DNA of 64,000 nucleotides from a virus: positions 1 through 64,000 of IMG/VR virus record IMGVR_UViG_3300050343_000255; one strand, given 5' to 3'. The notes below the pieces were generated by a model. That model made no database searches and had not been told where the DNA came from. It saw nothing but the letters and a program-made list of their open reading frames with translations. The stretch's first letter is position 1, and every line of letters starts with the position of its first letter. This document shows, in pieces, positions 25,416 to 49,030 of this stretch. The translations under genes and the position numbers were made by a program.

Positions 25416-26495
25416 ATGGCTTCAACTGTTATGCAGCGCTCCGGCGCTAAGAGTAACTGGGAAGAGTTTTGTAAGTGGGTTACGAGTACCAACAACCGTC
25501 TGTATGTCGGTTGGTTTGGCATCCTCATGATCCCTACGCTCCTCGCAGCGACTATTTGTTTTGTTATCGCCTTCGTTGGCGCACCACCTGTAGATATTGA
25601 TGGCATTCGTGAACCAGTTGCTGGATCGCTCCTATATGGAAACAACATTGTATCGGGAGCAGTCGTCCCGTCTAGCAACGCAATCGGACTCCACTTCTAC
25701 CCAATCTGGGAAGCAGCAACCCTCGACGAATGGCTCTACAACGGAGGACCATTCCAACTCGTTGTCTTCCACTTCCTTATCGGTATCTACGCTTACATGG
25801 GACGAGAATGGGAACTTAGCTACCGGCTAGGTATGCGCCCATGGATTTTCGTAGCATATAGCGCACCTGTAGCAGCAGCGTCTGCCGTGTTTCTTGTCTA
25901 TCCCTTTGGACAAGGATCCTTCTCTGACGCAATGCCTTTGGGCATCTCCGGTACATTCAACTATATGTTGGTGTTCCAGGCAGAGCATAATATCCTCATG
26001 CATCCGTTCCACATGCTTGGTGTGGCTGGTGTCTTCGGCGGAAGTTTATTTTCTGCTATGCACGGTTCTCTTGTTACATCATCTCTCGTGCGTGAAACCA
26101 CGGAGCAAGTGTCACAGAACTATGGCTACAAGTTTGGTCAAGAAGAAGAGACCTACAACATCGTGGCAGCACATGGCTACTTCGGTCGCTTGATCTTCCA
26201 ATATGCTTCCTTCAACAATTCCCGTTCACTGCACTTCTTTTTAGCTGCGTGGCCGGTAGTTGGTATTTGGTTCACCGCTCTTGGCGTGTCAACCATGGCC
26301 TTCAACCTCAATGGCTTCAACTTCAACCAGTCAATTGTTCACGGCGGTCACGTCGTTAACACCTGGGCAGACATTCTGAACCGTGCAGGTCTTGGTCTTG
26401 AAGTAATGCATGAAAGGAACGCACACAATTTCCCATTGGATCTTGCGTCCGCTTCTACATCCCAAGTGGCTTTGACCGCTCCAAGTATCGGTTGA
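25416..26495 (+). CDS. psbA: Photosystem II D1 protein
   Basis: Full-length D1, intronless, [13 protein letters not shown] terminus, Gln at the 130-equivalent position. Confidence 0.99.
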
Positions 26496-27855: not shown

Positions 27856-28530
27856 ATGCGAATCTTTCTTGATACCGCAAACGTTGAAGATGTAGCAAAG
27901 CACTTTCTCACTGGACTAATTGATGGTGTCACTACTAACCCAACACTAATTAGAAAGTCAGGCAAAGAGCCTACTGATGTCTACAAGGAACTATCTCAAA
28001 TAGGTGTTCGTGATATCAGCATGGAAGTGTATGGGAGTGCAAAAGAAATGTATGAGACAGGCAAACAGCTTGCTCATGATTTCAATGGCGTTGCCACAAT
28101 CAAACTACCGATGACTAGATGTGGATTGCTTGCTTGTAAAGAGCTATCAAAAGATCACATCCGAACTAATGTCACGTTAGTATTCACAATTCCTCAAGCA
28201 ATTCTTGCAGCAAAAGCTGGTGCAACTTACGTTTCACCTTTTGTTGGACGACTAGATGATCAACAAGTGTCTGGTCTTGAAGTTGTCAGAGGAATTAAAG
28301 GATTGTATGCAGCAAAACATGTGGACACACAAGTTCTAGCTGCTTCAATTCGTAGTGTGCATAGAGCAGTCAGATCTTTCTATAACGGAGCTGATGTTGT
28401 GACTATGCCCCCTTCAGTGTTTGAGGATATGTATAAGCATATTCTTACTGATGCTGGATTAGAAATCTTTGAACAAGATATCGCACAAATCAAGTGCAAT
28501 AGTGTAAACTTTATTAAGGAATATAAATAA
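27856..28530 (+). CDS. talC: Transaldolase (cyanophage TalC)
   Basis: IFLDTA, GVTTNPTLI, IKLP, NVTLVF, YVSPFVGRLDD, LAASIR. Confidence 0.95.
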   Translation: MRIFLDTANVEDVAKHFLTGLIDGVTTNPTLIRKSGKEPTDVYKELSQIGVRDISMEVYGSAKEMYETGKQLAHDFNGVATIKLPMTRCGLLACKELSKDHIRTNVTLVFTIPQAILAAKAGATYVSPFVGRLDDQQVSGLEVVRGIKGLYAAKHVDTQVLAASIRSVHRAVRSFYNGADVVTMPPSVFEDMYKHILTDAGLEIFEQDIAQIKCNSVNFIKEYK

Positions 28531-33886: not shown

Positions 33887-35308
33887 ATGGAAAAAAATCA
33901 AGTCATTGCTCGCACTGGTCGAGTACAAAATTGGATTGACGATCCTACAAGTCGCCTGCCCGTCAGCTGCACAGTTTTTGTGGTGGATGACAGCATGGAG
34001 GGACCTAACGGAATCGAGGCTAGCTGGCGCTACGTGAGTCACGGTTACGTTTTGGAGCAGGGGTTGCTGTACACCTATCCAATCTCCGTCCTGCAGGACA
34101 TGACAATGGCAAAGGACTAGTAAGTTCCGGGCCATGTTCGTTTGGCAAAATTTATAGTTGTCTGAACGAGCAGTTACGTAGAGGTGGTGTATACAAAAAC
34201 GGTGCCGTAGTGCTGCACCTCGATTTAAACCACAAGGATATTCTTGAGTTTGTCAATATGCCTAGGCATGAAATTCCTTGGGCAAAACGTTGCGTCAACT
34301 TGTCCAACGTAATGTGGGATATGGCAATCCCTGCAGTCAAGGATGCAATCATCAAAGGTATTGCTCGTGGTGACATTTGGCTAGCCAAGATTAGGCATGA
34401 TCAACACGGTGAAAGAATTTTCGCGAACGTTTGCCTTGAAGTCTTCCTGCGTAGCAGGGGTACTTGTCTCTTGGAGCACATAAATTTGGGTGCTTGTCGT
34501 GCTGAAGATTTACCTGCTGCATTTATTTGCGGCATGGAAGAACTAATTGATTTACATGGTAAAACTGGTGTTGAGAAAACTGGCGAGTATCTTTCTCAAG
34601 AAGAAGATCGCCAAGTCGGTTTGGGAATGCTTGGTCTCGCCAATTTGCTTGCGCTGGAAGGAGTTACGTATGCTCAATTCGGAGAAGCTTTAAACGAGCA
34701 TCTGTATCCCTTTAGGTGATTACATCGTGACTCCTGAAGCACGTAATATAGTTAAAGCACTTCAATTAGGAATTGATTCCGCTGCTGCTATTGCAAGTCG
34801 AGCCAATATGGATCGTTGCTTTGCTATTGCACCTACGGCGTCTTGTTCCTATCGCTACAAAGACAGAGCAGGCTATACAACTACCCCCGAACTTGCACCG
34901 CCAATCGGGCGTACAGTTGATAGGGACAGCTCTACATTCGGTGTCGAGACATTTGACTACGGTGATGTTGAAACAGCTGAATCTGTTGGGTGGGACACTT
35001 ACTACCGCGTAGTAAATGGCATCATGACAATGCTGTCAAACACTGGCCTCAACCATGGATATAGTTTCAACAGTTGGTCAGATGTAGTTCAATACGACGA
35101 TGCCTTCATTGAATCCTGGCTAAGTTCTCCGCAAACCTCTATGTATTATTCATTGCAGGTTATGCAGAACACTCAAGCAAAAGACGATGCTCTTGCTGCT
35201 TTAGATGGAAACTTCGGTGAGATGTTTGGATTCAATGATGATGATGCCGACGATGACATTTTAGATGTCTTTAACGACCCCGCATCCTGCGTAGGGTGCG
35301 CCGAGTAA
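33887..35308 (+). CDS. nrdA: Ribonucleotide reductase alpha subunit (cyanophage class I), split by apparent frameshifts
   Basis: RLPVSCTVF, NVCLE, VGLGMLG, AIAPTASCS, YY and C-terminal CVGCAE across three ORFs. Confidence 0.85.
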
Positions 35309-39460: not shown

Positions 39461-40220
39461 TCTTCCATACAGAATACAAACTTCCGCCGGACATAGAAAG
39501 TATCTATGCTCCGGCATTTATATGCCGAGTGTAACTACGGTTCTCTCGGCTACTGAAAGCGAAAAGTCCAAAGCTGGTCTTCGCAACTGGCAAAAGAATA
39601 ATCCGGGTGCGCTAGAGGCAGCATCAACTCGCGGCTCGGCTATTCACTTAGGTTGTGAAAATTATCTCCGTGGTTTAGACCCAGGTGTTCCTGAAGATTA
39701 TCTAGATTTCTGGAATGGTATGTCTTCTTACCTTGATTGGTTTGATACAATTCATTGGTCGGAGCGTCCTTTACGTCCCGATTGGAACCATCTAAGAAGT
39801 GATGATAGAGAAGTCGCATTTGTTTGGAGTACGGAGCATAAATATGCTGGATGTCCTGACCTTATTGGTGAAATCGGTGGAGTACGAGTTATTGCTGACT
39901 TTAAAACTAGCAATGCTCCTTACTGCGCTTCTTTTCCTGATCGTGGAGATCGAATTGGATTCGGTGGTTACCGAAAATATACGAAGTGTGCGCAGCAAAT
40001 GGCTGCATACAGATATGCACTAAACGAAAGAACAGGTTTCCTTTGTGATGTTGCCCTAATTATTGTCTCAACACCTGAGACAACCCAAGGCATCTTCATT
40101 GATGGCGATCAACTTGCGTTGCACGAATCACGTTTCCTGAAACGTTGTCAACAATTCCATGAAATAGATAATGAAACTACGGATTGCAGTACACAAAAGT
40201 TGCAAGAACAAGCAGAGTAA
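39447..40220 (+). CDS. PD-(D/E)XK exonuclease
   Basis: PSVTTVL, RGSAIH, YAGCPD...IADFKTS, Q.AAY. Confidence 0.85.
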   Translation: MVTSDLPYRIQTSAGHRKYLCSGIYMPSVTTVLSATESEKSKAGLRNWQKNNPGALEAASTRGSAIHLGCENYLRGLDPGVPEDYLDFWNGMSSYLDWFDTIHWSERPLRPDWNHLRSDDREVAFVWSTEHKYAGCPDLIGEIGGVRVIADFKTSNAPYCASFPDRGDRIGFGGYRKYTKCAQQMAAYRYALNERTGFLCDVALIIVSTPETTQGIFIDGDQLALHESRFLKRCQQFHEIDNETTDCSTQKLQEQAE

Positions 40221-42417
40221 ACCTGCACGCGATTGGCAAAATATATTAGAAGATATTGATTGGTTACTAGGTTGGGTTCAAAACGGCTATGGATGGTGTG
40301 CCACACACTTCAAAGCTCGTCATCGCAAGGCTGATAACTCAGCTGGCTCCAACATGGTCGTCATTGACTTTGACGGAGACACAACCCTTGCCAGATTTTG
40401 GTCAAGTGATACTGCTCGTCAATGGTGTGTAGCGACTTATACATCAGCTAGTCATACAGAAAGTGAGCACAGGTTTAGAGCCTTGTTCCCGCTTGGCAAA
40501 GAGCTTCTATCTACTGCTGAGCACAAGGGTGCTTATTGGTTAATCGTCAATCGTTTACTTGCAGAGCTAGAGCTCACTGAGCTTGCTGATAACTGTGGGC
40601 AAAAACCTGAACGACTGTGGTTTGGTAATACCAATGCAGATATTCACAAGAATGCTGAGTATGAGCCTGTCCCAGAATTTCTCCTCAATGACATCGCATA
40701 TGACGAGTCTTCTAACTTTGTATCCTCGGATGTAACTGATATAGACATACAGCGTTGCCAATGGTTGCTAGAAAGCTTTCTGACACCGTCTGATGATGGT
40801 CAGTATGAAACTTACTATGTACCAGTCATGGCAGCTTGTGCAGGCATTGGTGAGCCTGTATTTGATGCTTGGGTTAACTGGGTATTAAAAGGCCATCACG
40901 GTGAAAAACCTGAAAATATACAACCATTTAAATGGCGAGGTCTCGGAAACTTTTCAGGTCCAACTACACTATATTCACTTGCTAAAAAGCAAGATGCAGA
41001 CTGGGCACACAAGCTGCCATCACATCTTAGGTTTGGTGCAGTAGGTGCAGCTGCGGGATATACAGAGTTTGATCCAGTACAAGATATTGATCAGATAGTC
41101 CAAGATCATTTACAAACAAGGAGTAGTAGCAAATCAATGAATAATTCAGATGAATCCATTGTTCCAGAACCTTTACCTGATTCAAACCAAGTCAAAAAGC
41201 GTGGTCGTCCCAAAAAGAATGACGATGACTTAGCCAAGCAACGTGAATCAGATGTTCAAAAGGTTAAAGAGATTCTTCTCAACCTACGAAAGAATGAACT
41301 CACAGGAGCGATTGAGTACACACAGCCAGGTGGTGAAGCTGTCTTTCTTCAAGGTCAAGACCTAGACCTTATGACTACCAAGCTTGCTTGTGAAAACGGT
41401 GTATTCATTCCTGAGCAGCGGATCAAGTCTGCAATTCAATATGCAGCAAATCAAAATAGGTATTGCCCGATCCGTACCTACTTAGATAAATGTGCTGATA
41501 CCGCTGAACCTCACCCTGACTGGGACAACATTGGTGAAATTTTCCTAGGCAACAAACACAACATCTCTACTACAGCAATGCAGCGCATGATGATTGGTGC
41601 TGTAGCTAGGGCATATGACCCAGGCTGCACCATGTCTTGGCTGCCAATCCTGGTAGGCCCTCAAGGTGCTGGTAAATCAATGTTCTCCAGAAGCCTTGTA
41701 CCTCCTGCACTGTTTTCTGAGATCACAACACCTTTAGATACGCTCATGCGTGAGCAATATCGATTGCACGTGGCATGGCTGCTAGAGCTACCAGAGATTG
41801 ATAACTACTTCAATACAAGAAACATTGAGAACTTCAAAAACCTTGTTACTACACGAGTAGATGAAGTGCGTTATCCATACGCATCTCTACCTAGCAAACT
41901 ACCTAGGCGCTTCGTATTTATTGGTACTACCAACCGAAATCAATTCTTGGTTGACAGCACAGGTAACCGTAGATTTGTTCCACTCGAACTTGGGGCTGGT
42001 TTCCAAATTCCATGGAAAGAGCTGTGCAATGTACGAGATAGTCTGTGGGCTGCTGCAGTAGCTGCATATCGCAATAATGAAGGCTATGAGTTTACAAGTG
42101 GTGAGATCGCTGCTATATATGAATACATCCAAGAGTTTGGTGATCCAGACCCTTGGTTAGATAAGATCGCATCCTATGTAGCTATCCGAGAGGAAGTAAC
42201 TGCAGCAGATGTTCTTACAAATGCTCTCGAATTAGATCCTCGTAATCAAGGTCGTAGAGAAGGCAGACGTGTAGCTGATGTTCTTCAATCAATGGGTTGG
42301 AGAAGACTAGTAACAAGCAGGAAAGATCCGGCAACGGGTAAGTCCAAGTCTGTACGTGTGTGGCAACGTCCTAAGAATGATCCTCTATTAGAAGATCACA
42401 TTCTTAATGACTTCTAA
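40171..42417 (+). CDS. Primase-polymerase / VirE-type SF3 helicase fusion
   Basis: N-terminal DFD..TSASH..RFR AEP motifs, PriCT-like region, Walker A GPQGAGKS, FIGTTN, STGNRRF. Confidence 0.85.
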   Translation: MKLRIAVHKSCKNKQSKPARDWQNILEDIDWLLGWVQNGYGWCATHFKARHRKADNSAGSNMVVIDFDGDTTLARFWSSDTARQWCVATYTSASHTESEHRFRALFPLGKELLSTAEHKGAYWLIVNRLLAELELTELADNCGQKPERLWFGNTNADIHKNAEYEPVPEFLLNDIAYDESSNFVSSDVTDIDIQRCQWLLESFLTPSDDGQYETYYVPVMAACAGIGEPVFDAWVNWVLKGHHGEKPENIQPFKWRGLGNFSGPTTLYSLAKKQDADWAHKLPSHLRFGAVGAAAGYTEFDPVQDIDQIVQDHLQTRSSSKSMNNSDESIVPEPLPDSNQVKKRGRPKKNDDDLAKQRESDVQKVKEILLNLRKNELTGAIEYTQPGGEAVFLQGQDLDLMTTKLACENGVFIPEQRIKSAIQYAANQNRYCPIRTYLDKCADTAEPHPDWDNIGEIFLGNKHNISTTAMQRMMIGAVARAYDPGCTMSWLPILVGPQGAGKSMFSRSLVPPALFSEITTPLDTLMREQYRLHVAWLLELPEIDNYFNTRNIENFKNLVTTRVDEVRYPYASLPSKLPRRFVFIGTTNRNQFLVDSTGNRRFVPLELGAGFQIPWKELCNVRDSLWAAAVAAYRNNEGYEFTSGEIAAIYEYIQEFGDPDPWLDKIASYVAIREEVTAADVLTNALELDPRNQGRREGRRVADVLQSMGWRRLVTSRKDPATGKSKSVRVWQRPKNDPLLEDHILNDF

Positions 42418-42455: not shown

Positions 42456-42692
42456 ATGAAATCCACAGATATCAAGATTGGTCAACGAGTATTTGTTGCG
42501 CCACATAATCGAATTGCATTAGTCGTAGGAAAGCCAGAGTATTACACTCCTCGTGCTCGTCTCGTTCGGATCAAGTTTGAAAATAGTACTAGGTTTGAAT
42601 ACAAACTCAACCACCAACTAGACCTACTGCCTACTGAGTACCAATACAAAGCACATGGTGGTAGTCACGTAAAGCCTGCTGGTGATTTTTGA
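42456..42692 (+). CDS. Small KOW/SH3-like protein (...AGDF tail)
   Basis: DIKIGQRVFV start. Confidence 0.5.
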   Translation: MKSTDIKIGQRVFVAPHNRIALVVGKPEYYTPRARLVRIKFENSTRFEYKLNHQLDLLPTEYQYKAHGGSHVKPAGDF

Positions 42693-43492
42693 TGCCTGAA
42701 TCACAGCCCAGTAAAAAAGTAGGTGGGCACACTTACGGTCGAAGAAATTTAAACATGTCTAATACCGCAGAAGAGGGAGCTCTCTGTCTCTATAGCGGTC
42801 ACTCCATAGGCAGGTTTAGCTCTTCTTCTATGCGCTATGACAGTCACCAAGCTTGTGTGCGCTGTGTAGCTGCTGCAAGAGAAGGGCGCATGTCTTTCAA
42901 TATTGATCGGCTTCTCAAAAAAGAACGTAAGCGTGCACTGAAATTCTGGTCAAAAGTTGATATTGGTCAACCTGATGACTGCTGGGAATGGCTTGGCTAT
43001 AGGTGCAAAACAAATGGCATGCCTCAATTTCCATGGAGGCGTCCAGGAATTAGTACCAGTACACAGCACCACCCACAAAGAGTTGCTATGTGGTTTACCT
43101 GGGGAGACCTTGGCTATACCGGAGTCAAGTCAACGTGTGGGAACAAGTACTGCTGTAACCCATTTCATCTTATACCCCAAAAGATTGGGGTTTTTGTTGA
43201 CTGCGATTCCTATCTAGAAAGTTTTGAGTTGGCTTGTGAACTTCACACCTTAAAGCAGCAAATTGCGGAATACAATTTAGAAGAAGCAATGAAAGAACAA
43301 GAGAAACTAATTAGTCAACAAGAACTTGAAGACCGATCAAATCTATTGTTCGAACCTGATTCAAATTTCTCAGACAGGTTCCAAGCTGTTGTGGAAGATA
43401 TGTTGAGTGGGAGACACCCAAGTCAACAAATCAAAATCCTAATAGTCTTTTTCAAGATGACGAGGAAAATACCACAGAAAACTTTTAATTAA
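42689..43492 (+). CDS. HNH (His-Cys-type) nuclease-like protein lacking the catalytic His
   Basis: FWSKVD..DDCWEW..QRVA..VKSTCGN..CCNPFHL. Confidence 0.65.
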   Translation: MMPESQPSKKVGGHTYGRRNLNMSNTAEEGALCLYSGHSIGRFSSSSMRYDSHQACVRCVAAAREGRMSFNIDRLLKKERKRALKFWSKVDIGQPDDCWEWLGYRCKTNGMPQFPWRRPGISTSTQHHPQRVAMWFTWGDLGYTGVKSTCGNKYCCNPFHLIPQKIGVFVDCDSYLESFELACELHTLKQQIAEYNLEEAMKEQEKLISQQELEDRSNLLFEPDSNFSDRFQAVVEDMLSGRHPSQQIKILIVFFKMTRKIPQKTFN

Positions 43493-43520
43493 TCTATCCT
43501 TAGTAAAGAGTCATAAGAAT

Positions 43521-43943
43521 ATGTCAAGACGAAGCGATCTTATTCAACAACTAATTTCATCCAAGAAATTTGGTCCTGAAAAGAAACAAGAGCAGGAGTT
43601 CCTCATGGCTACTGCAGAGTTGATTCTTTCTGACCTGATTAATATTGCACTTACTGGTGTTGAAAAAAGGGGAACTGGCTCATTAGTCATCAACCTTATG
43701 AATGACTCTACGACGTTCATGTGGCCTGAATCAATTGAGTTTGATTTGAAAACAGCTGAGCGAGAAGAAGACGAGGATATCGTTGACTTTCTACGTGATC
43801 TGCTTGAAGAAATCGAAACCAATGACTGGTCAAAAAATGTATTAATAACATTAATTAGCGATGCTGGAACAAGAACATTTGCAGTCGAAGCAGGTCGGTG
43901 CCAAGAGGGCCTTAGAGCGCTCGCAGAAGAATTTATCGGATAA
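43521..43943 (+). CDS. Hypothetical protein
   Basis: 140-aa ORF. Confidence 0.6.
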   Translation: MSRRSDLIQQLISSKKFGPEKKQEQEFLMATAELILSDLINIALTGVEKRGTGSLVINLMNDSTTFMWPESIEFDLKTAEREEDEDIVDFLRDLLEEIETNDWSKNVLITLISDAGTRTFAVEAGRCQEGLRALAEEFIG

Positions 43944-44529
43944 GCTTGCCGCCAAAGGTCTAAAGCTACCGTTATATCCGACACCTCAGATCATTGATCG
44001 AGCTCGTGCTGTCATGGGCAGTATCGACTTTGATCCAACTTCAGATCCTGTTCAACAGGTTCTTGTTGATGCAACATCCGTACCAAGCATTGAAGTCAAT
44101 CCTTTGCAGGAGCATTGGCACGGAAACGTATGGGTAGCACCTAAAGGAGCTGTACGTGATTGCCGGATTTGGCTTAATAAAACACTGAGTGAATATCGCA
44201 ATGGATATATTAATAGTTTTGTTTTATTCAGCAGTGCTTCAGAATTACTACGGGCTGCACCTGTTGTATGGGATTATCCAATCTGTATTCCGTTTAAACG
44301 GGTAAAGCAACTGCGTGCCACAGCTACTGGCTTTGAGCCAGTTTCTCCTTCTACTTGGAACCTAATCATATATGGTCCACCAATTAATCAAGCGCTAACT
44401 GATATTGACAAAGTCTCTCTGTTTTACGACAGCTTTAGAGACCTTGGTCGTGTCATCTATAGTGAATATGCAGGAGATGGTTGGAATAAAGATCTTGAGT
44501 ACTACGAAGAAAACAAAGGTAGTATTTGA
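43861..44529 (+). CDS. Phage N6-adenine methyltransferase-like protein with degenerate catalytic motif
   Basis: IIDRARAVMGSIDFDP...WHGNVWVAPKG (NPPY absent). Confidence 0.65.
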   Translation: MLEQEHLQSKQVGAKRALERSQKNLSDKLAAKGLKLPLYPTPQIIDRARAVMGSIDFDPTSDPVQQVLVDATSVPSIEVNPLQEHWHGNVWVAPKGAVRDCRIWLNKTLSEYRNGYINSFVLFSSASELLRAAPVVWDYPICIPFKRVKQLRATATGFEPVSPSTWNLIIYGPPINQALTDIDKVSLFYDSFRDLGRVIYSEYAGDGWNKDLEYYEENKGSI

Positions 44530-44942
44530 TGTCAAAACATATTGCACCGGACTGTCTGTTAACTCTTCCTTCTAACGATCGGGTTCATCCTTGTCGTTTG
44601 ATTTTAAAAGATGGCACACTAATGTGGAAACATGCACTCTTCTATGAAGATAGTCTTGCATGTATCCCAAAATCCGTTGCACATGAGAGGCACATAATAA
44701 AAACTGCTCAGCGCCTAGAGGAACTGAACAGTTGGATATCACAAGGATTAGAGCCTTGGAACTCTTTAACTATCAAAGGGTGGTATCAGCCTTTCAATCC
44801 TGAACTAAGTGAAGGTATATCTGTATGCTTTACACACAGTTCACATGAGCTTGATTTTACGTTTGAGAATTTATTGCCACACATCCAAGATCATGAGAAG
44901 CTTGAACTAAGAAAAAATTATCTATTCTTTCAACGCTGCTGA
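44526..44942 (+). CDS. Peptidase M15-like protein lacking Zn ligands
   Basis: W...IP...IIKTAQRLEE...I.GWYQP scaffold; H-x6-D motif absent. Confidence 0.45.
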   Translation: MMSKHIAPDCLLTLPSNDRVHPCRLILKDGTLMWKHALFYEDSLACIPKSVAHERHIIKTAQRLEELNSWISQGLEPWNSLTIKGWYQPFNPELSEGISVCFTHSSHELDFTFENLLPHIQDHEKLELRKNYLFFQRC

Positions 44943-44966
44943 CAACAAGGCCGCATATCTGCGGCT

Positions 44967-45284
44967 TTAATAGTTTAACGAATCAATCAACCTAGTAAGA
45001 TACCATTGTGCTTTTTCAGCATCTTCTTTACTGTTTGACTTATGCCACATACGCAATAAATACTTCAAGACTTGCGCTTGCAAAAATCCTTGCTTACAGC
45101 TCGGAGCTTTATCAATTGCATCTTCAATTACTTCAATTGCTTCATGGCGTCCTGCCGTGTAATGAGCAGGGCTATTTACCATGTCAGTTGTAACGGGCTC
45201 TGTATATTCCCAAGTACTGAACTTGCTATTACTAAACCCAGAAACATAATCACCGTTGCTAAAAAAGCTATTCTTTTCGTTCAT
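44967..45284 (-). CDS. DUF3310 protein
   Basis: DMVNSPAHY..EAIEVI..KYL.R..K...ED.EKAQWYL. Confidence 0.85.
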   Translation of the reverse strand: MNEKNSFFSNGDYVSGFSNSKFSTWEYTEPVTTDMVNSPAHYTAGRHEAIEVIEDAIDKAPSCKQGFLQAQVLKYLLRMWHKSNSKEDAEKAQWYLTRLIDSLNY

Positions 45285-45342
45285 GAGTTTGTCTCGCGTA
45301 TTGATTACTCCTTACTTAATATAGGAACTGGAATCATATATT

Positions 45343-45909
45343 GTGGATATGCCGAGCCCTAAAGGTGACCCGACTTACATCAAAAATAAAGAACGATTCT
45401 ACATGAACGTTGCAAAGGCAATTAGCCAAGCATCAACACATCCAAAATGTCCAGGTGGATGTATTATTGTTCGTGATAGAGAGATTATTGGAGATGGTAG
45501 AAGCATACTGACGGATAGCATGGTTGAAATCGATTGCATTTCATATGCAGTCGCAGCTGCAGCCAAGGCAGGAACTCCTGCCATTGGTGGTGTGATCTAT
45601 ACAACAAGATATCCATTTTCAACTTCTGTGTTTCAAGCACACATGATGGGTATCAAAAAGATTGTTCTACTTGCCCATGACTGGGAACCGTATTACAAAG
45701 AAGAGTTCAGACGTTCTGCACGTCTAGCTCGTGAATTGAACATTGCTATTGAGCCAATGTTTGAAGACGAAGACCCAAGATTTACTAAGAATTCAAATGA
45801 CAGAGATATTGACGAAACTCTCTTCCCGGAAGCAAACCCGTTTGCGCCAGATGAATATGATCCAAACAATGCAACACATACCTTCGATGAAAACACAACT
45901 CCTATTTGA
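45343..45909 (+). CDS. dCMP deaminase-like protein lacking HAE and PCxxC
   Basis: YM.VA..S..GCIIVRD..IIG.G...IYTT.YP..GIKKIV scaffold. Confidence 0.7.
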   Translation: MDMPSPKGDPTYIKNKERFYMNVAKAISQASTHPKCPGGCIIVRDREIIGDGRSILTDSMVEIDCISYAVAAAAKAGTPAIGGVIYTTRYPFSTSVFQAHMMGIKKIVLLAHDWEPYYKEEFRRSARLARELNIAIEPMFEDEDPRFTKNSNDRDIDETLFPEANPFAPDEYDPNNATHTFDENTTPI

Positions 45910-46411
45910 CCTTGAATCCACAGGCTTACTTCGACGTGGCTCCACAATTCACTGCATGGTTATGCGTGATGCTGTTGATAGCAGCACTCATGTCTTTGAT
46001 CACAAGCCTGAACGTGCATTGATTCAAGGCATCAAACAACTAGAAGATGCAGATGTAATCATCGGGCACAACATTATTGGATACGATATCCCATTGCTCA
46101 AAGAGCAGTATCCAGACTTTGAACCTAAGGGTCAAGCAATGGATACCCTTGTGCTTAGTCGTTTGTTCTATCCACACATCATGGATAGAGATCACGAACG
46201 TCGTCCACTTGGCATGCCTCAACGTTTGTATGGCAGGCACTCACTGGAAGCGTGGGGTTACAGGTTGAAGTGCTTCAAAGGTGACTTTGGTAAGCATGAT
46301 GGCAACTGGGCTGTCTATACACCTGAAATGCTGGATTACTGCATCCAAGACACCGAGGTCACCCTCAAACTATGGCAACTTATGCAACGGAGAATGAACG
46401 ACTATGCCTGA
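45887..46411 (+). CDS. 3'-5' exonuclease domain of a split PolA
   Basis: FDLESTG, GHNIIGYD, HSLEAWGYRL, YCIQD. Confidence 0.9.
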   Translation: MKTQLLFDLESTGLLRRGSTIHCMVMRDAVDSSTHVFDHKPERALIQGIKQLEDADVIIGHNIIGYDIPLLKEQYPDFEPKGQAMDTLVLSRLFYPHIMDRDHERRPLGMPQRLYGRHSLEAWGYRLKCFKGDFGKHDGNWAVYTPEMLDYCIQDTEVTLKLWQLMQRRMNDYA

Positions 46412-46661
46412 TAAAAATGCACCACTAACTTCTGAAGAAATTACAGAAGCAGCAGATATCTTTTTTCCGCTCTTTAATATTGTCGATGAGCGTATGCCTG
46501 AAACAGCATCTACAGAAGATACGTTGAAAGTTATGGAAAACATTGCTAAGTTGGCACAGAAGGAACGAATTAAAAAACGAGAAGAAGCTGTAAAGCTTAA
46601 GTTCGGATTTAATAAAACTACTGATTCAGATGAGGATACTGTCAAAGATGAAAGTGATTGA
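46404..46661 (+). CDS. Hypothetical protein inserted between the PolA halves
   Basis: 85 aa, overlaps both neighbours. Confidence 0.65.
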   Translation: MPDKNAPLTSEEITEAADIFFPLFNIVDERMPETASTEDTLKVMENIAKLAQKERIKKREEAVKLKFGFNKTTDSDEDTVKDESD

Positions 46662-47955
46662 TTCTGTCAAACTTGAAATGCGTATGGCCAGCATTATGGC
46701 CCAACAGGAAGCAAGCGGATTCCGTTTCGATCTAACCGCAGCTGAGCGAGTTCGTGGTGAGTTTGAACAAGAGATGTCTGATCTACAAGGTCAAATTTCT
46801 AAACGTTTTATTTATGTTCCTGGCAAGGTCTACACACCTAAGCGTTCAAATAAAACCAAGGGTTTTTTCGCTGGTGCTCCGATGACAAAGCTGCTCGACT
46901 TCAATGCAACGAGCCGTCAGCATATTGCGTGGGCTCTACAGAACTTCAGCAAAGCCAGGTTTATCAAGGTTACTGAGACCGGTAAGCCTAAAGTTGATGA
47001 AGCAACTCTGTCTGAGCTGCGAGATACCGCACTGCAGCAAGGGAATACCAAGCTGCATGAGGAGTGTGAGATGTTTATCCGCCTGCTGACTTTGCAGAAG
47101 TGGATGGGACAGTTGTCGGAAGGATCTAACTCATGGTTCAACACCATTGAGGATGACGGATGCATCCACCACAGCTGTTCACTGGCAACGATCAGCGGTA
47201 GAAATGCGCATCGGGGTCCCAACTTGGGGCAGGTCGTAAGTGCACCATGGGCACGTCAGCTATTCATTCCACACCCTGGCATGGTCATGGTGGGGGCTGA
47301 CTTAGAAGGACTCGAACTTCGGGCGCTTGGGCACTACCTAGCCGTCTTCGATGAGGGCGCTTTTGCTGATGTTGTGGTCAACGGTGACATTCATACGCAG
47401 AATGCAGAGCGAGTTGGATGTACCAGATCTGAGGTCAAGTCGCTGGTCTATGGGTTCATTTATGGGGCTGGCGATGTGAAGCTGGGTCATATTTTGCATC
47501 CCGAACTTAGTGACGCTCAGAAGAAATCTCTTGGCACAGAACTACGACGTAAGTTTCTTGATGCGATCCCTGGTCTAGAACCCCTGGTTGATGCAGTCAA
47601 AGCAAAAGTTCGTAGTGCTGGTCAGCTCAAAGCACTAGATGGTCGTCCAATCTTCTGCCGAGCAGAACACAGTTCACTCAACTTCCTGCTTCAGTCATGT
47701 GGTGCGATTTTGAGTAAGCGGTGGTGTGTCATCGGTCAAGACTTACTTGATCAAGCAGGGCTTGCCTATGACAACGACTACACCCGTTGTGCCTACGTCC
47801 ATGATGAAGTTCAACTGTCTGTTGTACCAGCAGAGGTAGACCGTGTCAAAGAGCTCCTAGTGGCTGCTGCTCCTCAAGCAGGGCGTTACTACAACTTCCG
47901 TGTTCCGATTACAGCTGCCGCTGATCACGGAGACAACTGGGCAGCTACCCACTAA
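46630..47955 (+). CDS. polA: Family A DNA polymerase (T7-like), polymerase domain
   Basis: Motif A DLEGLELR, motif B KSLVYGFIYG, motif C VHDE. Confidence 0.95.
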   Translation: MRILSKMKVIDSVKLEMRMASIMAQQEASGFRFDLTAAERVRGEFEQEMSDLQGQISKRFIYVPGKVYTPKRSNKTKGFFAGAPMTKLLDFNATSRQHIAWALQNFSKARFIKVTETGKPKVDEATLSELRDTALQQGNTKLHEECEMFIRLLTLQKWMGQLSEGSNSWFNTIEDDGCIHHSCSLATISGRNAHRGPNLGQVVSAPWARQLFIPHPGMVMVGADLEGLELRALGHYLAVFDEGAFADVVVNGDIHTQNAERVGCTRSEVKSLVYGFIYGAGDVKLGHILHPELSDAQKKSLGTELRRKFLDAIPGLEPLVDAVKAKVRSAGQLKALDGRPIFCRAEHSSLNFLLQSCGAILSKRWCVIGQDLLDQAGLAYDNDYTRCAYVHDEVQLSVVPAEVDRVKELLVAAAPQAGRYYNFRVPITAAADHGDNWAATH

Positions 47956-48376: not shown

Positions 48377-49030
48377 ATGGCTGCTCCTTTGCTAAGTATA
48401 TTTCGTCCGGCAGGACAACGTTTATTAGATAATCTTTCTAATAATACTTTTATTGGAGGAACAATATTGGCTGCACAAGAAGCTATTCCTGCAGTCTTTG
48501 GGACCAAACGCACGGATACAAATATTGATCCAAAGATGACAACAGCTATTATTGAAGCTAAAAAATTAGCAGAAAAAAGTGGCAGAAAAAATGTAAAGTA
48601 TGAAGACTACAATAACTCAACTCCCGGAGGATTTGCCGCTGCCAGGACATTTGGTCAAATTGCAGACAATGAATTCAAACGAGACGACAAAGGAAATATT
48701 ACTGGAGTAGTTCAACGCTACGATACAAATAAATCACCTACACAAGCTTTGTCTGAATTTAATATTTCTAATCCAAGTACTTATTACAAACCTGTTGAAG
48801 CATTTCTATCTTCTAATCAAAATAAAGGTGTTACAACCCACGATATCAATTTTTCTTCACCTGTCACGATTGAATCTAATAAGCCACCCAAACCAGTATC
48901 ATACAAAGTTCAACAAGGAGATACACTTACTTCTATTGCAAATAGCATGGGTGTAAACGTAAGTGAGCTTGCTAAAAGAAACAATATTGCTAATGCAAAT
49001 TTAATTAATATTGGTCAAACAATTGTCTAA
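48377..49030 (+). CDS. LysM-domain protein
   Basis: C-terminal YKVQQGDTLTSIA...NNIANANLINIGQ. Confidence 0.85.
   Translation: MAAPLLSIFRPAGQRLLDNLSNNTFIGGTILAAQEAIPAVFGTKRTDTNIDPKMTTAIIEAKKLAEKSGRKNVKYEDYNNSTPGGFAAARTFGQIADNEFKRDDKGNITGVVQRYDTNKSPTQALSEFNISNPSTYYKPVEAFLSSNQNKGVTTHDINFSSPVTIESNKPPKPVSYKVQQGDTLTSIANSMGVNVSELAKRNNIANANLINIGQTIV

Follow-up and report, generated by a model that had tools for sequence, protein, structure and literature searches.

The 64,000-nucleotide stretch of viral DNA analyzed here (the window) comprises positions 1 to 64,000 of the IMG/VR record IMGVR_UViG_3300050343_000255, a 106,357-base record that is rated complete. Four genes on the plus strand of the window, located between the genes for a primase-helicase and a PolA-type DNA polymerase, are the subject of this report. 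They encode an HNH/His-Me-finger-like protein (42692..43492), a protein resembling the small phage Dam adenine methylases of PF05869 (43861..44529), a small protein with the predicted fold of peptidase M15A (44529..44942), and a protein with the deoxycytidylate (dCMP) deaminase fold (45349..45909). An earlier note, made from the letters of the window, had described these genes as four unrelated enzyme scaffolds in which the canonical active-site residues are replaced. The four genes are found as long open frames at the position given in that note, and the start codons of three were corrected using relatives and junction sequences (ATG 42692 for the HNH-like gene, ATG 44529 for the M15-like gene, and ATG 45349 for the deaminase-like gene). 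All four fold assignments hold, by PHROG, hhalign, PF00383, and AlphaFold/VIA/BFVD evidence, and the same losses of canonical residues are found in every orthologue examined.

The HNH-like protein matches PHROG 826, labeled 'HNH endonuclease', with an E of 2.5e-11. A tblastn search with this protein returned phage proteins annotated as HNH endonucleases, with E values reaching 7e-7 for the HNH protein of Corynebacterium phage StAB, which itself matches Pfam HNH_3 at 1e-14. The three annotated phage HNH endonucleases that were checked match either Pfam HNH_3 or zf-His_Me_endon. No match to PF13392 (HNH_3) was found in the HNH-like protein by hmmscan with E up to 1, or in a six-frame search of the genome with E up to 10. 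The core of the protein is collinear in alignment with the Pfam-verified HNH_3 proteins, and the C-W-x-W...G...R-x-A...T-C-x-N-x-x-C-C-N-P-x-H-L core of the homing-type phage endonucleases of this family aligns residue for residue.

In His-Me fingers the general base is the His of H-T-C-D-N, and the metal is bound by the Asn of G-T-x-x-x-N. In the HNH-like protein the AHR motif is replaced by PQR (His to Gln), V-x-H-T-C-D-N is replaced by V-K-S-T-C-G-N (His to Ser/Thr and Asp to Gly), and the G-T-x-x-x-N helix segment is missing in the HNH_3 alignment. The column of the general-base His holds Ser or Thr in 65/65 sequences. The Cys and His residues of the zinc loop are kept, as is N-P-x-H-L, and residues C98, C150, C155, C156, and H160 are invariant. 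The protein consists of an invariant N-terminal Cys/His cluster, the nuclease-like core, and a helical acidic C-terminus, of which the cluster and the acidic C-terminus are additions relative to HNH_3 proteins. The mean identity of core residues 124-164 is 96% over the 65 sequences. The same residues are missing from the homologue in cyanophage S-EIVl. These alignments confirm the protein as an HNH_3/His-Me-finger homologue that lacks the canonical catalytic residues. The corresponding frame of Synechococcus phage S-EIVl (L088:4950-5546) is only partly annotated, and two short opposite-strand open reading frames (ORFs) are annotated over its 5' part.

The methylase-like protein, when searched alone, gave no Pfam or PHROG match and none above the PF05869 cut-off. 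When its family was aligned by hhalign with seven phage Dam proteins, a probability of 99.6% and an E of 1.7e-23 were obtained over 156 columns; six of these seven proteins were run against Pfam, and 4/6 pass PF05869. The tblastn search returned 231 phage records, with phage methyltransferases at E 3e-8, and the best matches listed are mostly annotated as adenine methyltransferases. In the Atlas cluster of the protein, 21% of the members carry PF05869. The protein falls in the same length class as the small phage Dam proteins of PF05869 (e.g., those of Vibrio phage 1.185.O and Pseudomonas phage 8P), and the profile alignment is collinear. No solved relative of the canonical Dam alignment was found among PDB sequences by sequence search.

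The T-P...I-D-x-D-P-x-S segment and the W-x-G-x-V context are common to the PF05869 Dam proteins and the methylase-like protein. The I-D-x-D-P-x-S region, present as I-D-F-D-P, is invariant in the methylase-like orthologues and is the segment best shared with canonical members. The methylase-like protein differs from the Dam family in motif IV, in an extra N-terminal helix, and in a C-terminal extension. At the catalytic motif IV, whose general form is (D/N/S)-P-P-(Y/F/W), the sequence APKG is aligned to NPPY. This motif reads A/S-P-K-G in 80/80 orthologues and S-P-E-G in L107, a more distant locus. W-L-N-P-P-Y/W is kept in bacterial relatives, and the canonical N-P-P-Y/W also occurs in phage homologues. 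Intermediate forms of motif IV appear as NPPG in the cyanophage A-1(L) and in N1, as NAPG in Dfl-JY23, and as FPPN in S-EIVl. The protein is confirmed by profile alignment as a PF05869 Dam homologue that has lost the canonical motif IV.

Motif IV reads NPPC in the Dam homologue of MW202679. Dam homologues of cultured cyanophages are found at L084:1519-2133, L085:1534-2148, L110:2459-3088, L111:2462-3040, and L083:2689-3279. They are labeled as adenine or C-5 cytosine methylases, and the one of S-EIVl is labeled hypothetical.

No family could be assigned to the M15-like protein by sequence in Pfam (including PF08291), PHROG, a PDB profile search, or tblastn. The AlphaFold model of this protein has a mean predicted local distance difference test (pLDDT) score of 92.2. 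In a VIA search with the model, the zinc DD-peptidase 1lbu from Streptomyces appears first (Z 10.2, root-mean-square deviation 7.5, 109 residues aligned), followed by the hedgehog N-domains (Z 6.4-7.0). VldE, DacB, Ply500, VanXY, VanX, and the T5 endolysin are found at Z 4-5.9, and LysB4, MepA, VanY, and the RB49 L-Ala-D-Glu peptidase are further matches. The best matches in BFVD are labeled 'Peptidase M15A, C-terminal', with E 5.7e-4 to 1.4e-3 and template-modeling (TM) scores of 0.63-0.67. Among these is a protein of Microcystis phage LMM01 (TM 0.67) that matches PF08291 at 1.5e-19. Foldseek against the PDB gave only weak hedgehog matches (E 0.09). When the M15-like family was compared with the LMM01 M15A protein by hhalign, the match was weak (probability 7.7%) and covered two features common to M15A and the M15-like protein, the long helix and the W-Y-(Q/R)-P turn.

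The likeness to the LAS fold of Peptidase M15A/PF08291 (1lbu, VanX/VanY, and the phage L-Ala-D-Glu endolysins) is thus a whole-domain structural match. The M15-like protein differs from M15A in lacking the H-x6-D...H zinc triad and in the placement of its gene in a replication module rather than a lysis module. Downstream of the W-Y-(Q/R)-P turn, P-E-L-S-E-G-I-S-V-C stands in place of the canonical S-x-H-x-x-G-x-A-x-D. The stretch between W86 and H104 is free of His and Asp, and the positions anchored on G97 are L94 and C/Y101. F135 is found on the last strand where the third His ligand is expected. This scaffold was the least certain of the four in the earlier note, and it is borne out by the confident model, the match to 1lbu, and the M15A matches in BFVD. 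The Peptidase M15A/hedgehog-DD-peptidase fold is confirmed at the level of the predicted structure, and the missing zinc triad is confirmed as read from the sequence.

The deaminase-like protein matches PF00383 with 23.4 bits, relative to a cut-off of 25 bits, over model positions 3-100 of 102, and its gene is the only PF00383 match in the genome. The Atlas clusters of this protein carry PF00383. A search of its profile against the PDB gave RibD at E 6.6e-6 and dCMP deaminase 2hvv at E 1.5e-3; dCMP deaminase 1vq2 was also found. When 1.84 billion representatives were searched, the protein's own clade appeared first, with E from 5e-82 to about 1e-10, followed by the first canonical dCMP deaminase at E 2.2e-10. 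None of the matches ranked above this first canonical deaminase has HAE or PCxxC, and both motifs are absent from all of the clade members that were aligned at full length (P0121-P0136). The canonical motifs are present in 91/150 of the best representatives. No relative of clade member P0136 was found among the viral contigs.

The HAE motif is replaced by D-C-I and PCxxC by P-F-S-T-S. The dCMP deaminase clade carries a zinc-bearing insert before helix 2 (PMC3239186). The insert that the canonical dCMP deaminases have at this position, just before HAE, is missing from the deaminase-like clade. Relative to the dCMP deaminase/ComE clade (PF00383; 2hvv, 1vq2), the domain match is nearly full length, the nearest canonical relatives are dCMP deaminases, and the N-terminal S-T-H-P...G-G-C-I-I-V segment and the Y-T-T-x-x-P strand are kept. 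An acidic and variable C-terminal tail (window 45750-45909) has been added, and it contains the conserved P-F-x-x-D-E-(Y/F)-D-(P/S), i.e., D-E-Y-D-P, which looks like a docking motif. The protein is confirmed as a dCMP-deaminase homologue in which, on the aligned motifs, the canonical zinc-binding and catalytic residues are missing.

A search for homologous proteins returned close relatives only. When profiles of the methylase-like, HNH-like, and M15-like families were searched against PDB sequences, all matches (gasdermin, NRC2a, and NKG2-D) were coiled-coil or at chance level and were rejected.

A scan of the viral contigs in IMG/VR identified 250 relatives, of which 80 were fetched; 13 more divergent loci were then added. 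The gene order is identical in all of the longer loci, and only one gene of the cassette, that for a DUF3310 protein, switches strand. No internal stops are found in the orthologues of the four genes. Across about 90 related viral contigs with this gene order the replacements hardly vary: the substituted motifs show little or no variation among 65-81 orthologues and remain near-invariant in the more distant loci, of which L107 has a primase-helicase with only 40% identity. The canonical motifs are kept in distant homologues. In the HNH-like and Dam-like proteins, conservation is highest in the former active-site regions.

The ratio of nonsynonymous to synonymous substitution rates (dN/dS, omega) was determined by the Nei-Gojobori method for pairs with dS of 0.05-0.8. 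The values of omega are 0.014 for the Dam-like gene, 0.020 for the HNH-like gene, 0.068 for the deaminase-like gene, and 0.081 for the M15-like gene. The corresponding values for the primase-helicase, PolA, and exonuclease genes are 0.025, 0.027, and 0.047, respectively. Purifying selection acts on the four genes with a strength similar to that seen for the polymerase and helicase. Since the motif losses are common to the orthologues and purifying selection is strong (omega 0.014-0.08, far from neutral), the genes are neither decaying pseudogenes nor products of read errors, in agreement with the earlier note.

The four genes belong to a cassette of fixed order, which is part of the DNA-replication module in a widespread lineage of marine cyanophages. 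The order of the cassette is primase-helicase, 78-aa ORF, HNH-like gene, 140-aa ORF, methylase-like gene, M15-like gene, DUF3310 gene (minus strand), deaminase-like gene, PolA exonuclease, 85-aa ORF, and PolA polymerase. The upstream boundary is the VapE-like primase-helicase (40171..42417, plus strand), which matches Pfam VapE-like_dom with E 2.2e-49 and PHROG 256 with E 4.9e-59 and has a Walker A motif in its translation. The 78-aa ORF (42456..42692, plus strand) has no assigned family, is conserved in 60 loci, and has an omega of 0.09. The stop codon TGA of this ORF and the ATG of the HNH-like gene overlap as TGATG. The acidic 140-aa ORF (43521..43943, plus strand) has no Pfam or PHROG family match, is conserved in 77 loci with an omega of 0.10, and overlaps the methylase-like gene by 83 nt. 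The start of the M15-like gene overlaps the stop of the methylase-like gene, again as TGATG. The DUF3310 protein (44967..45284, minus strand) matches Pfam DUF3310 with E 1.7e-14 and PHROG 236, labeled 'nucleotide kinase', with E 9.9e-24; its omega is 0.04. This gene is on the minus strand in the window and on the plus strand in L096-L100, L102, L103, and L106, a strand change that amounts to a single-gene inversion within an otherwise fixed cassette.

The gene for the PolA 3'-5' exonuclease subunit (45887..46411, plus strand; PHROG 17, E 1.9e-33) starts at an ATG at 45887, which is 23 nt inside the deaminase-like gene. The PolA polymerase subunit (46630..47955, plus strand) matches Pfam DNA_pol_A with E 1.1e-27 and PHROG 15971 with E 5.8e-97, and it forms the downstream boundary of the cassette. 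The 85-aa ORF (46404-46661) lies between the exonuclease and polymerase halves of this split PolA, overlaps both, and is conserved in many relatives. Just after the polymerase, a 217-aa protein (48377-49030) has a C-terminal LysM domain (1.6e-14); unlike the M15-like gene, it may encode a real cell-wall-binding or lysis protein.

Genes for MazG, ribonucleotide reductase (RNR), and ThyX are located upstream of the cassette, and the family matches for the neighboring enzymes MazG, RNR beta, ThyX, PolA, and helicase are strong. The ORFs at 34210-34719 and 34727-35308 match only positions 374-664 of the 701-position PHROG 367 (ribonucleotide reductase large subunit). The large-subunit gene (34210-35308) therefore looks split or truncated; its N-terminal part was not searched for.

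The window also contains psbA (25416-26495; Photo_RC, 2.6e-85) and a transaldolase gene (27856-28530; 3e-46). These are classic cyanophage auxiliary metabolic genes and mark the host group. Because the record carries both, the source of the window is a marine cyanophage. No close cultured phage was found at the DNA level by blastn, and no close relative of the cassette was found among cultured phages by blastn or tblastn. A scan of genome contigs found the cassette only on short contigs in metagenome-assembled genome (MAG) bins from marine samples. These bins belong to unrelated taxa and provide no host information, and the contigs are likely to be phage sequence assigned to the wrong bin. Parts of each of the four genes are covered by contigs from four seawater RNA libraries, but these may stem from carried-over DNA and do not demonstrate expression. 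A promoter and terminator scan of the region was no better than shuffled sequence (23 promoter-like sites vs 26.0, standard deviation 5.6). Over the whole window, GGCC (observed/expected 0.60) and CGCG (0.71) are the most depleted palindromic tetramers, and GATC shows no depletion (0.93). Literature searches turned up no account of this cassette.

The reading favored here, at about even confidence, is that the four genes encode anciently inactivated enzyme homologues that likely serve as non-catalytic binding or scaffold proteins tied to replication or to the supply of deoxynucleoside triphosphates (dNTPs). The motifs suggest that the four proteins are catalytically dead. A non-catalytic role is favored because each protein has lost several residues that are indispensable for catalysis while remaining under polymerase-like constraint, and because the genes are translationally coupled to their neighbors and the deaminase-like protein has a docking-type tail. 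Each protein would have retained its ancestor's capacity for binding but not its catalysis. With its structural Cys/His sites in place, the HNH-like protein would be a DNA binder that no longer cleaves, and the Dam-like protein may bind DNA or cofactor through the kept I-D-x-D-P region without methylating adenine. The deaminase-like protein could be a pyrimidine-nucleotide binder or a plain subunit, and its acidic tail might dock on another protein of replication or nucleotide metabolism. The M15A-fold protein would be a small adaptor. The stop/start overlaps would allow the four proteins to be made together with the replisome, to which they would be non-catalytic accessories.

METTL14 is an inactive methylase partner, and the accessory subunit of Pol-gamma has an inactive aminoacyl-tRNA synthetase fold. 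For the deaminase fold, the inactive deaminase partner Tad3/ADAT3 is a precedent (PMC3239186). In each of these three cases an enzyme fold has remained under selection after the loss of catalysis, as a binding or processivity subunit. The three have known active partners, whereas the four cyanophage proteins are unrelated to one another and encoded side by side. No active paralogue of Dam (PF05869), dCMP deaminase (PF00383), or M15A (PF08291) was found in the phage genome, nor one of the nuclease, which was searched for as HNH_3 (PF13392) only. The interpretation given in the earlier note is partly supported, namely in the four unrelated scaffolds, the lost residues, and the purifying selection; a single complex and the suggested roles in late-transcription activation, as a replisome scaffold, or as decoys remain conjecture. 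The one complex prediction, for the methylase-like and M15-like proteins, whose genes are coupled, has a score of 0.01, which weighs neither for nor against binding.

Several points count against this assignment of non-catalytic roles. The binding activities, partners, and ligands of the four proteins are conjectural, and their joint action is suggested only by adjacency. The invariant substituted residues fit a new catalytic site as well as a binding site. In the M15-like protein, the zinc-ligand positions were mapped from the sequence, the predicted strands, and the fold match rather than by residue-by-residue superposition, and the conserved residues H53, E54, H56, H104, H119, H123, and E124 could form another site. 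The AlphaFold model of the methylase-like protein, built with 21 close relatives, has a pLDDT of only 45, so that its pocket is not inspectable. The omega values of the four genes are approximate, since dS is high for many pairs.

A rival explanation is that some or all of the four proteins are still enzymes with rewired active sites, for example as steps of a nucleotide or DNA modification pathway whose genes adjoin those for replication and dNTP supply. The replacement motifs PQR, V-K-S/T-T-C, A/S-P-K/E-G, E-I/V-D-C/P, and Y-P-F-S are as conserved as true active sites, several invariant His and Glu residues are kept in the M15-like protein, and the other phage Dam homologues present a graded series of motif IV (NHPF, NPPG, NAPG, NPPC, and FPPN). 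The cassette also holds the DUF3310 protein, labeled a nucleotide kinase by PHROG, and lies just downstream of MazG, RNR, and ThyX. The losses themselves argue in the other direction: the deaminase-like protein is without all three zinc ligands, the catalytic Glu, and the pre-HAE insert; the HNH-like protein is without the general base and a metal-binding residue; and in motif IV of the Dam-like protein both the Asn and the aromatic residue are gone. In addition, searches detected no family of modification enzymes, and GATC shows no depletion. Retained catalysis of this kind is considered possible but somewhat unlikely.

A proposal with two branches was also considered. Either the four proteins are subunits for the replisome or for dNTP supply that were derived from four inactivated enzymes, possibly together with the two small ORFs, or the invariant replacements constitute new chemistry. 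The latter branch would be an undescribed route of nucleotide or DNA modification on Dam-, deaminase-, M15-, and HNH-derived scaffolds. The proposal as a whole, which includes its new-chemistry branch, is regarded as unlikely. If true, either branch, accessory subunits from four inactivated enzymes or new chemistry, would be new.

An anti-defense function, in which inert look-alikes expressed early with the replication genes would sequester a defense component or its ligand (DNA ends, S-adenosylmethionine, or a nucleotide signal), is judged quite improbable. HNH, methylase, and deaminase folds are common in defense systems, the genes belong to an early/middle module, and the RNA-library contigs, with DNA carry-over possible, cover parts of all four. 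The values of omega and the fixed gene order, however, are unlike the usual fast turnover of anti-defense genes, and coupling to the polymerase genes points to a core role. No PADLOC or anti-defense family evidence was found, although no search was aimed at it.

It is very unlikely that the resemblances have been over-read, such that one or more of the proteins has another fold or the catalytic residues are misaligned. Searched alone, all four fall short of the Pfam gathering scores, the model of the Dam-like protein failed, and the hhalign match of the M15-like family to canonical M15A is weak, as noted above. Against this, independent lines of evidence agree for each protein (PHROG, tblastn, the profile-profile E of 1.7e-23, and the 23.4 bits to PF00383), the confident M15-like model has members of the M15/LAS group as its top matches in two structure libraries, and the motif stretches hold no His, Cys, or Asp able to restore the motifs. 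The suggestion of the earlier note that the proteins form a late-transcription activation complex with the host RNA polymerase is hardly credible, as nothing beyond that note's impression of -10-only late promoters speaks for it, promoter-like sites in the region are no commoner than in shuffled sequence, no sigma, anti-sigma, or transcription-factor family appears in the Pfam and PHROG scans, and the genes sit within the replication module, flanked by those for helicase and polymerase.

If the four proteins are non-catalytic, as favored here, then the replication core of this abundant lineage of marine cyanophages contains a row of four adjacent putative pseudoenzymes of unrelated folds. Eukaryotic pseudoenzymes have been described extensively, but those of phages have received little study. 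The relatives in the cultured cyanophages A-1(L), N1, Dfl-JY23, and S-EIVl bear the labels 'DNA N-6-adenine methyltransferase' or 'C-5 cytosine methylase', or are annotated as hypothetical; because their motif IV is degenerate, these enzyme labels may be wrong. With about 250 related viral contigs in IMG/VR and a constraint equal to that of the polymerase, the four proteins are good candidates for new replisome, nucleotide-pool, or host-interference factors in viruses of ocean primary producers.

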